From sequence record NZ_CP017202.2: a stretch of DNA of 26,506 nucleotides; one strand, 5' to 3'. The position numbers and the translations under genes are program-made. Under the pieces are notes generated by a model. That model did no database searches. It had not been told where the DNA came from and saw only the letters and a program-made list of their open reading frames with translations. This DNA comes from a plasmid. Below are positions 4,768 to 5,865 of this stretch, piece after piece. Every line of letters starts with the position of its first letter. Position 1 is the stretch's first letter.

Positions 4768-5865
4768 ATGAAAGAAATTGGAATATCCATATACCCCAAT
4801 GTAAGTCCTAAAAATAAAATTATTGAATATCTCGAGAAAAGTGCTCATTTTGGATTTACTCAAGTATTTACCTCTTTGCTCTATATTAACGGAAATGAAT
4901 TTGACATATTCAAAGAATTACTTAGCATTGCAAATAAAAACGAAATGAAACCTATTATTGACGTAAGTCCTGAAATTTTCAAAGAATTAGGCATCGATCT
5001 TTCAAATCTTAGAAATTGTCCAAAACTAGATTATTTTAAAAAGCTTGGCGCCTGGGCAATTAGATTAGACAATACATTCACAGGCATTGAAGAATCATTA
5101 ATGACTTTTAACGACTCTGACCTTAAAATTCAACTTAATATAAGCAATATAAATAAACATATTGATACAATAATGTATTTTAAGCCTAATATAAAAAATT
5201 TACTTGGGTGTCATAATTTTTATCCTCACAAATATACAGGACTTTCAAGAAATTTCTTTAAAGAAACAACAAAAATATTTAAACATTACTCAATCCCAAC
5301 AGCCGCATTTATTAGCTCTAATAATGCAGAAGAATGCGCACGAGGGAAAGAAAAAGAAGGTGTTCCTACACTAGAATCACATAGATCTAAAGATATAGAA
5401 ACCCAAGCAAAAGATCTTTTCAAAGAAGGAATAGATACAGTCCTAATTTCTAATTGTTTTCCAAGTGAAACAGAACTAAAAAAAGTATCAAAGGTAAACA
5501 GAAATATTTTAGAGCTCAAAGCAGACCTAAATCCAAATGCAACTTCAGTAGAAAAAGAAATAATCCTTGAAAATTTACATTTTAATAGAGGAGATATTAA
5601 TTCCTATAGAATTCGATCAACTATGCCAAGAGTGTACTACAATAATAAAAAATTTCCTGTACATTCTCCAAATGAAATTAAAAAAGGAGACATCCTAATA
5701 GATTCTTCAGAATACTTAGGTTATACAGGAGAACTTCAAATAGCACTAAAAGATACCCCCAATAATGGTTTTGTAAACGTAGTTGGGAAAATAATCAATG
5801 ATGAAATATATCTACTTGAAAAAATAGAGCCTTGGGAAAAATTCAAAATAATAGAAAATAAATAA
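4768..5865 (+). CDS. DUF871-family protein (BBB07-like; historically annotated as an outer surface/integrin-binding protein), co-operonic with chbAB
   Basis: 365 aa. N-terminus MKEIGISIYP... has no hydrophobic signal peptide or lipobox. The start is 12 nt after the chbB stop and has an AAGGAAGG RBS. The GISIYP start is characteristic of DUF871. Confidence 0.7.
   Translation: MKEIGISIYPNVSPKNKIIEYLEKSAHFGFTQVFTSLLYINGNEFDIFKELLSIANKNEMKPIIDVSPEIFKELGIDLSNLRNCPKLDYFKKLGAWAIRLDNTFTGIEESLMTFNDSDLKIQLNISNINKHIDTIMYFKPNIKNLLGCHNFYPHKYTGLSRNFFKETTKIFKHYSIPTAAFISSNNAEECARGKEKEGVPTLESHRSKDIETQAKDLFKEGIDTVLISNCFPSETELKKVSKVNRNILELKADLNPNATSVEKEIILENLHFNRGDINSYRIRSTMPRVYYNNKKFPVHSPNEIKKGDILIDSSEYLGYTGELQIALKDTPNNGFVNVVGKIINDEIYLLEKIEPWEKFKIIENK

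Follow-up and report, generated by a model that had tools for sequence, protein, structure and literature searches.

The glycoside hydrolase family GH170/DUF871 was founded on MupG of Staphylococcus aureus, a cytoplasmic enzyme that cleaves 6-phospho-N-acetylmuramic acid-N-acetylglucosamine (MurNAc-6P-GlcNAc), a disaccharide generated by a phosphotransferase system (PTS) (PMC6262408, Kluj et al. 2018). A second member, ChbE of Lacticaseibacillus paracasei BL23, is encoded in a cellobiose-class, diacetylchitobiose-transporting PTS operon. Genetic evidence indicated that chbE is required for growth on diacetylchitobiose, and the authors proposed that ChbE hydrolyses the phosphorylated disaccharide, an activity known from genetics only (Garcia-Telles et al. 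2026, PMC12791066). In B. coagulans, too, a gene of the DUF871 family has been flagged within an operon that encodes a cellobiose-class PTS. In the chb PTS operon of Escherichia coli, the cytoplasmic hydrolase is ChbF, a GH4 phospho-chitobiase that works with the deacetylase ChbG. In the present study, we analysed a 26,506-nucleotide stretch of plasmid DNA (sequence record NZ_CP017202.2; hereafter the window), the region 2400-6600 of which was ~98% identical to Borreliella burgdorferi cp26 plasmids. The annotated gene order on cp26 was celB/chbC, PTS IIA, PTS IIB, "alpha3-beta1 integrin-binding protein" and a hypothetical protein. The open reading frame (ORF) at 4768..5865 on the + strand, which has an ATG start and encodes 365 amino acids, is BBB07, and it carried the integrin-binding product name in every RefSeq/GenBank cp26 listed. 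Our analysis suggested that BBB07 is probably a GH170/DUF871 phospho-chitobiase of the cytoplasm, that is, a 6-phospho-beta-N-acetylglucosaminidase acting on chitobiose-6-P, and the fourth gene of the chb module.

Both domains of the MupG family were detected in BBB07 by Pfam search. The MupG_N triosephosphate isomerase (TIM)-barrel domain (PF19200; 4777..5493, + strand) matched residues 4-242 with an E-value of 2.1e-80 and 270.2 bits, and the beta-rich MupG_C domain (PF05913; 5509..5850, + strand) matched residues 248-361 with 2e-37 and 128.4 bits. The Pfam gathering cut-offs of 24 and 24.4 bits, respectively, were greatly exceeded. The first domain holds the invariant residues D65, R99, D101, N124, H149, N150, Y152, E203 and R206, and the second holds D276, R283, R288, Y319 and E322. 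BBB07 matched no NCBIfam model and had no Pfam match to the GH4 domain (Glyco_hydro_4). The original prediction, made from the sequence before any database search, had placed the protein in DUF871/PF05913, and the profile search bore this out. It had also pointed to a GISIYP-type start. The N-terminus MKEIGISIYP includes G5, S7, Y9 and P10, each of which was 99-100% conserved in the 109 closest non-Borrelia homologues, in agreement with that observation. A sequence search of the Protein Data Bank (PDB) with BBB07 returned the Bacillus cereus protein 1x7f (1.6e-78, 267 bits) and the Enterococcus faecalis protein 2p0o (2.3e-24, 89 bits). An AlphaFold2 model built from a 32-sequence alignment reached a mean predicted local distance difference test (pLDDT) score of 89.2 and a predicted template modelling (pTM) score of 0.90, and showed eight beta-alpha units and, after them, a C-terminal domain rich in beta structure. 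Foldseek aligned this model with 1x7f at a template modelling (TM) score of 0.87 and with 2p0o at 0.67; the next matches were TIM-barrel glycosidases, including GH35 beta-galactosidases, GH84 O-GlcNAcase and GH20 enzymes. These results confirmed by both domains and by the TIM-barrel fold that BBB07 belongs to GH170/DUF871.

The position of BBB07 within the family was assessed by comparing 226 1x7f-like sequences, which are linked to lactose/cellobiose-class PTS genes (PTS-Lac-linked), with 118 2p0o-like, MupG-type sequences. Across the 32 positions that discriminate the two groups, BBB07 carried the PTS-Lac state at 23, neither state at 9 and the MupG state at none. In a neighbour-joining tree rooted on the MupG-type sequences, the Borrelia proteins joined the PTS-Lac side as a long-branched sister clade to the entire 1x7f-like group. 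Because the subfamily invariants at positions 32, 122, 190, 192 and 290 and the G-P loop are missing, BBB07 appears to be a divergent sister lineage of the PTS-Lac-linked subfamily. Identity to 1x7f and its subfamily was 39-47%. The B. cereus protein, a structural-genomics entry labelled "outer surface protein", is the closest solved structure and resembles BBB07 in its RGD, its N-terminal GISxYP and its PTS context; it retains R32, E122, an FGPW-type loop and K290, all of which are altered in BBB07. In the B. cereus group (locus L099, 1520-8086), two DUF871 paralogues, one of them 1x7f, flank a single LicR-IIA-IIB-IIC operon. A direct link between 1x7f and the characterised diacetylchitobiose transporter 3qnq was considered and rejected, since the enzyme IIC (EIIC) encoded next to 1x7f proved to be a paralogue of that transporter rather than the transporter itself (310 bits).

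MupG resembles BBB07 in its two Pfam domains, its fold and all family-invariant residues, and it acts in the cytoplasm on a PTS-generated 6-phospho-N-acetylhexosaminyl-beta-1,4-GlcNAc disaccharide, as is predicted for BBB07. The common Pfam family, together with an R-G in the Borrelia loop before T-L-E and a "PTLE" as in MupG-type proteins, would speak for BBB07 being a true MupG orthologue, a 6-phospho-N-acetylmuramidase acting on MurNAc-6P-GlcNAc in peptidoglycan recycling. However, we regard this as extremely improbable. Not one of the discriminating positions was MupG-like, identity to the MupG-type 2p0o was 25%, the search score was three times higher for 1x7f than for 2p0o, and the tree placed the Borrelia clade with the PTS-Lac subfamily. 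The E. faecalis 2p0o gene, used here as the MupG-type proxy, lies in a DUF871-MurQ-MurP(IIBC)-MurR context that matches the S. aureus mupG-murQ-murP-murR operon (PMC6262408). MupG is thus partnered by the glucose-class MurP IIBC, whereas BBB07 stands beside a lactose/cellobiose-class IIA+IIB+IIC system without MurQ or MurR, and no SIS etherase (MurQ) or IIBC (MurP) was found on cp26. The predicted -1 sugar of BBB07, GlcNAc-6-P, would also lack the 3-O-lactyl group of the MupG substrate. Homologues in some Spirochaetales were mentioned by Kluj et al. (PMC6262408). On these comparisons, BBB07 is not a MupG orthologue but belongs to the separate PTS-Lac-linked subfamily. The parallel with MupG drawn in the original prediction was therefore sound as a mechanistic analogue but not as a functional template.

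The gene order at the locus was consistent with a joint transcript. The gene chbA (BBB05; 4083..4430, + strand) encodes a lactose/cellobiose-family PTS enzyme IIA (PF02255, 2.2e-27), and chbB (BBB06; 4439..4756, + strand), which starts 8 nt past chbA, encodes the enzyme IIB of the same family (PF02302, 1.2e-21; TIGR00853, 126 bits, over the cut-off). The chbB stop codon occupies 4754-4756 and the BBB07 ATG begins at 4768, which leaves a gap of 11 nt. A Shine-Dalgarno-like sequence read directly from the DNA, AAGGAAGG (4755..4762, + strand), shares bases with the chbB stop codon and is separated from the BBB07 ATG by 5 nt. The ribosome-binding site claimed in the original prediction was thus present, and the distance of 12 nt given there is corrected to 11. 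No terminator-like site was found within 3700-6700, no promoter-like site in the chbB-BBB07 junction and no intrinsic terminator downstream of BBB07; the operon end is presumably set by the convergent gene BBB08, 21 nt downstream of BBB07. The module chbC(-) | chbA chbB DUF871(+) was also kept on unrelated replicons of three relapsing-fever Borrelia, being chromosomal in Borrelia sp. RT1S and located on contigs in B. miyamotoi and in B. turicatae, with a gap between chbB and the hydrolase gene of 1-10 nt and with otherwise unrelated flanks, which in B. turicatae include plasmid-partition genes. The short gap, the ribosome-binding site, the uninterrupted junction and the synteny in Borrelia upheld the claim that BBB07 is operon-linked to chbA-chbB.

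Published expression data agreed with this arrangement. In a badR mutant, RNA sequencing gave log2 fold changes of 5.58 for chbC, 5.14 for chbA, 6.04 for chbB and 4.82 for BB_B07, and in a csrA mutant all four genes were up by 1.4-2.4 log2; base means scaled with gene length and, once length-normalised, were similar for chbA, chbB and BB_B07 (PMC6117026). Across 12 Lyme-group species, in which the 365-residue BBB07 ORF was intact, the ratio of nonsynonymous to synonymous substitution rates (dN/dS) was 0.09 for BBB07, 0.08 for chbC, 0.15 for chbA, 0.14 for chbB and 0.36 for the adjacent lipoprotein gene BBB08; the cp26 loci used came from a single-protein contig scan, which returned Lyme-group cp26 loci only. 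These values showed that BBB07 is under strong purifying selection. In B. lusitaniae PotiB2, an enlarged "cp26" of 45.7 kb carries the intact gene (locus L012) and a second, truncated copy at L015 8001-8573, which corresponds to residues 175-365 with 87% identity.

The neighbourhoods of related genes were recovered by an alignment-based metagenome scan, which gave 80 metagenomic loci with relatives 42-53% identical to BBB07, to which four genomic loci were added; counts were restricted to those 49 metagenomic loci that were flanked on each side by 3 kb or more. Lactose/cellobiose-class PTS genes lay within 5 kb of the GH170 gene in 45 of the 49. A BadF/BadG-type kinase, whose best NCBIfam match was N-acetylglucosamine kinase below the cut-off, was present in 22 of them, MurQ in 12 and AnmK in nine, with examples of the latter two over NCBIfam equivalog or subfamily cut-offs. 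GH1 occurred in six. Kinases for free GlcNAc, MurNAc or anhydro-MurNAc (anhMurNAc) beside a PTS and a GH170 gene are consistent with an enzyme that separates GlcNAc-6-P from an amino sugar carrying no phosphate, and the neighbourhoods support a predicted 6-phospho-beta-N-acetylglucosaminidase activity for the PTS-Lac-linked subfamily. The AnmK, MurQ and NagK-like neighbours were seen in Firmicute and Fusobacteria loci (L019-L098; e.g. L038 4917-9022, L047 6644-11090, L063, L076, L089 and L096). This suggests a possible PTS-dependent route for uptake and cleavage of GlcNAc-(anhydro)MurNAc, of which no description was found in the literature searched.

Genetic work in B. burgdorferi is in line with a hydrolase at this step. 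The transporter gene chbC is needed for the use of chitobiose and chitin, and a double mutant of bb0002 and bb0620, the only annotated candidate hydrolases, still uses chitobiose, from which the authors concluded that a redundant activity lies elsewhere (PMC2845121, Rhodes et al.). No other glycosidase, sugar kinase or deacetylase was found in a scan of the cp26 ORFs. In the proposed pathway, the ChbABC PTS would import N,N'-diacetylchitobiose of the tick and phosphorylate its non-reducing GlcNAc; BBB07 would then hydrolyse the beta-1,4 bond of GlcNAc-6-P-GlcNAc, giving free GlcNAc and GlcNAc-6-P, and the latter could enter NagA/NagB or cell-wall synthesis. The substrate and the bond cleaved are those we infer from context. 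The PTS linkage of the relatives, the genetics of chbE and the bb0002/bb0620 mutant together favoured the earlier argument that a phospho-glycosidase fits the operon logic better than an adhesin. ChbE, like BBB07, is a GH170 protein encoded within an operon for a cellobiose-class PTS, but the ChbE operon adds chbD (DUF3284) and chbR, both absent beside BBB07; the likeness noted here is one of gene context. ChbF holds the same position in the pathway as is predicted for BBB07, but its fold and chemistry are unrelated. In the literature, GH4 enzymes are NAD+/Mn2+-dependent and ChbF requires prior deacetylation by ChbG; no YdjC/ChbG gene lies near BBB07. A strain deleted for BBB05-07 has been described (PMC2229028).

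The founding MupG paper reported the catalytic residues of GH170 as unknown (PMC6262408), so no stronger test of integrity is available than whether family-invariant residues are retained. A HMMER scan of 1.84 billion cluster representatives gave 940 GH170/DUF871 members, and family-wide conservation was measured on 150 diverse representatives drawn from 50%-identity clusters. Twenty-four BBB07 positions were at least 90% conserved (G5, S7, F34, D65, R99, D101, N124, H149, N150, Y152, P153, G158, F181, T201, E203, R206, D276, R283, R288, G307, Y319, E322, N337 and F359), and BBB07 retained 24 of 24. The invariant polar set, which was checked on 344 subfamily members as well, was likewise complete. 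By this measure, the putative active site of BBB07 passed the integrity test.

Several observations, together with the published integrin binding considered below, weigh against the phospho-chitobiase assignment. The window encodes no GlcNAc kinase. A full-length GH4 phospho-glycosidase stood in the GH170 operon in 14 of the 49 counted loci (e.g. L003, L020, L022, L023 and L029-L031); the disaccharide phosphate may there be hydrolysed not only, or not mainly, by the GH170 protein, and the Firmicute pathway does not always rely on a single hydrolase. In a RelBbu microarray, the changes of BBB07 were weaker than those of chbA/chbB and partly discordant with them (PMC4331090). Furthermore, BBB07 departs from its 109 closest non-Borrelia relatives (~50% identity) at invariant sites, namely R32Q, E122Q, G190C, W192R and K290Y, and it has a six-residue insertion at 81-86 that is common to all Borrelia. 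The changes at 190, 192 and 290 (K290Y/I) and the loss of the G-P motif were also common to all Borrelia orthologues. Q32 and Q122 were confined to the Lyme group (12 of 12 species), and relapsing-fever Borrelia keep R32 and E122; the Gln32 codon lies at 4861..4863 and the Gln122 codon at 5131..5133 (both + strand). The Borrelia-specific loop of residues ~185-199, NNAEECARGKEKEGV (5320..5364, + strand), precedes the invariant T-L-E203 and replaces the FGPW motif, with G-K in place of the G-P that is otherwise universal there. It was the least confident part of the model, with a pLDDT of 63 for residues 191-200. These changes could mean that the activity, specificity or kinetics of BBB07 differ from those of its relatives.

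Taken further, the same changes raise the reading that BBB07 is a GH170 relative whose catalysis is impaired or which has taken on another role, for example as a sugar-phosphate-binding regulator or a PTS chaperone. The long branch of the Borrelia clade would agree with this, and an E-to-Q exchange on a barrel strand, as at position 122, is a classic inactivating change. We consider this reading very unlikely, as all family-invariant acidic, basic and His residues are retained, purifying selection is strong, and Borrelia has no other known enzyme for the chitobiose-6-P step (PMC2845121). Positions 32 and 122 also covaried across the 150 representatives (R/E 69, K/E 14, G/G 5, G/S 4 and Q/Q 3); Q occurred at 122 in 15 other family representatives, and in MupG-type proteins position 32 is Gly and position 122 either Gly or Ser. 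Because the two positions are variable and covary across the family, they would not be catalytic, and E122Q (with R32Q) as a catalytically dead substitution was rejected on this ground. A pair of second-shell residues, different from one subfamily to another, is the likelier interpretation, and the pair may lie where the pocket admits or excludes the 3-O-lactyl group of MurNAc.

For the cellular location of BBB07, hydropathy and upstream sequence gave a uniform result. The highest Kyte-Doolittle mean over 19 residues was 0.74 and no stretch exceeded 1.6, and over the whole protein, in which the first Cys is residue 84, no signal peptide, lipobox or membrane segment was found. An in-frame TAA at 4741 is followed by no start codon before 4768, which rules out a hidden N-terminal extension or signal peptide. 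The lack of a signal peptide or lipobox stated in the original prediction was thereby substantiated. The modelled fold was an alpha/beta TIM barrel and not an amphipathic outer-membrane beta-barrel. From these features we infer that BBB07 is a cytoplasmic protein.

Reviews citing Behera 2008 report that BBB07 binds integrin alpha3beta1, list it among outer-surface proteins with patient antibodies, and describe cytokine induction in chondrocytes, citing the RGD motif. The RGD codons (residues 274-276; 5587..5595, + strand) lie within a family motif H-x-N-R-G-D. In the homologue alignments, R, G and D were each 100% conserved in the 109 non-Borrelia homologues, which come from free-living and gut Firmicutes, Clostridia and Fusobacteria, and the motif was present in B. 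cereus 1x7f; among the 150 representatives, R274 was 89% and D276 94% conserved. Since the motif is kept in non-Borrelia homologues, RGD is an ancestral family motif that predates host interaction, not an adaptation to integrins, and in vitro binding to integrins that recognise RGD might be seen with any member of the family. "Outer surface protein" was also the name of cytoplasmic DUF871 proteins of Bacillus, Clostridium, Enterococcus, Oceanivirga and others in UniRef or PDB, some of which were named "Histidine kinase". The former name looks like a propagation from the early BBB07 label. That of 1x7f parallels the BBB07 label and is not evidence observed in this analysis.

The binding data, with the reduced signal of a BBB07 transposon mutant in most mouse tissues (PMC3485029), are the basis for reading BBB07 as primarily an outer-surface adhesin, which would bind alpha3beta1 through RGD and cause inflammation, with the enzyme-like fold being incidental. 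This reading is highly improbable in light of the results above. The neighbouring lipoproteins BBB08 and BBB09 have evident leaders (FLFSC and ILGC), whereas BBB07 has none, and its model is soluble. The near-invariant R-x-D, the dN/dS typical of the adjacent metabolic genes and the co-regulation with tick-phase chitobiose genes (PMC6117026) also argue against it. The transposon phenotype could be metabolic, as insertions in chbB, upstream of BBB07, were likewise attenuated (PMC3485029). A further reading would reconcile the sequence evidence with the published binding: BBB07 could be a cytoplasmic phospho-chitobiase that moonlights, with a fraction reaching the surface by a non-classical route, or released by lysis or in vesicles, allowing the RGD loop to engage alpha3beta1. 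The patient antibodies, as described in those reviews, show only expression and immune exposure at some point, which would suit it. We nevertheless judge moonlighting unlikely, because no export route is visible in the sequence, the near-invariance of R274 and D276 points to residues that serve the structure or the active site and not to a free loop, and expression is highest under tick-phase-linked conditions. A cytoplasmic phospho-chitobiase is the assignment we retain as probable, with moonlighting as a secondary possibility.

The remaining features of the locus lie upstream. The gene chbC (BBB04; 2475..3806, - strand), divergent from chbA, encodes a cellobiose/chitobiose-class PTS EIIC (PF02378, 5.7e-73; TIGR00410, 616 bits) and matched 3qnq, the B. 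cereus ChbC, with 295 bits. Repeat and promoter scans of the divergent chbC/chbA control region (3807..4082) revealed a 66-bp tandem duplication, whose 55-nt copies at 3811-3865 and 3877-3931 were 96% identical, each holding one TTAAAA-16-TACAAT promoter-like site. Promoter-like sites on the + strand of this region were located at 3824-3851, 3890-3917 and 3910-3939, and a 23-nt inverted repeat at 3963-3985 and 3990-4012 was 91% complementary. These elements could represent duplicated promoters, or operator sites, through which the published BadR/RpoS-RpoD control acts. Elsewhere on cp26, of the ORFs at 21906-22601 and 23263-24507, one contained a Peptidase_M78/IrrE-like domain (9.7e-27) and the other C-terminal ankyrin repeats, neither of which is usual on such a bacterial plasmid.

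In the literature searched, no published link of BBB07 to DUF871/GH170 or to chitobiose cleavage was found; the L. paracasei chbE paper contains 0 mentions of Borrelia (PMC12791066), and reviews up to 2024 still list BBB07 as an integrin-binding adhesin. The present finding thus re-annotates a known gene on good support and introduces no new mechanism. If it is true, it identifies the hydrolase unaccounted for ever since bb0002 and bb0620 proved jointly dispensable for chitobiose use, offers a metabolic explanation for the attenuated bbb07 and chbB transposon mutants, removes a doubtful entry from the list of adhesins and corrects a mis-propagated database label. It would also supply a second substrate class for the barely explored GH170 family, and it would provide a way to study how Borrelia divides tick chitobiose between its energy metabolism and its unusual cell wall. 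The peptidoglycan of Borrelia reportedly has unusual GlcNAc-GlcNAc-anhMurNAc glycan ends, in work by DeHart from 2021. A wider proposal, which we advance tentatively as possible rather than probable, is that BBB07 and the entire PTS-Lac-linked GH170 subfamily are 6-phospho-beta-N-acetylglucosaminidases acting on GlcNAc-6P-beta-1,4-X, that the Firmicute and Fusobacteria neighbours mark GlcNAc-(anhydro)MurNAc recycling, and that BBB07 is the branch-point enzyme for chitobiose. Were this so, BBB07 would decide whether tick chitobiose is split for catabolism or spared for these glycan ends, and the Borrelia-specific changes adjacent to the active site would tune the balance between catabolism and the cell wall.

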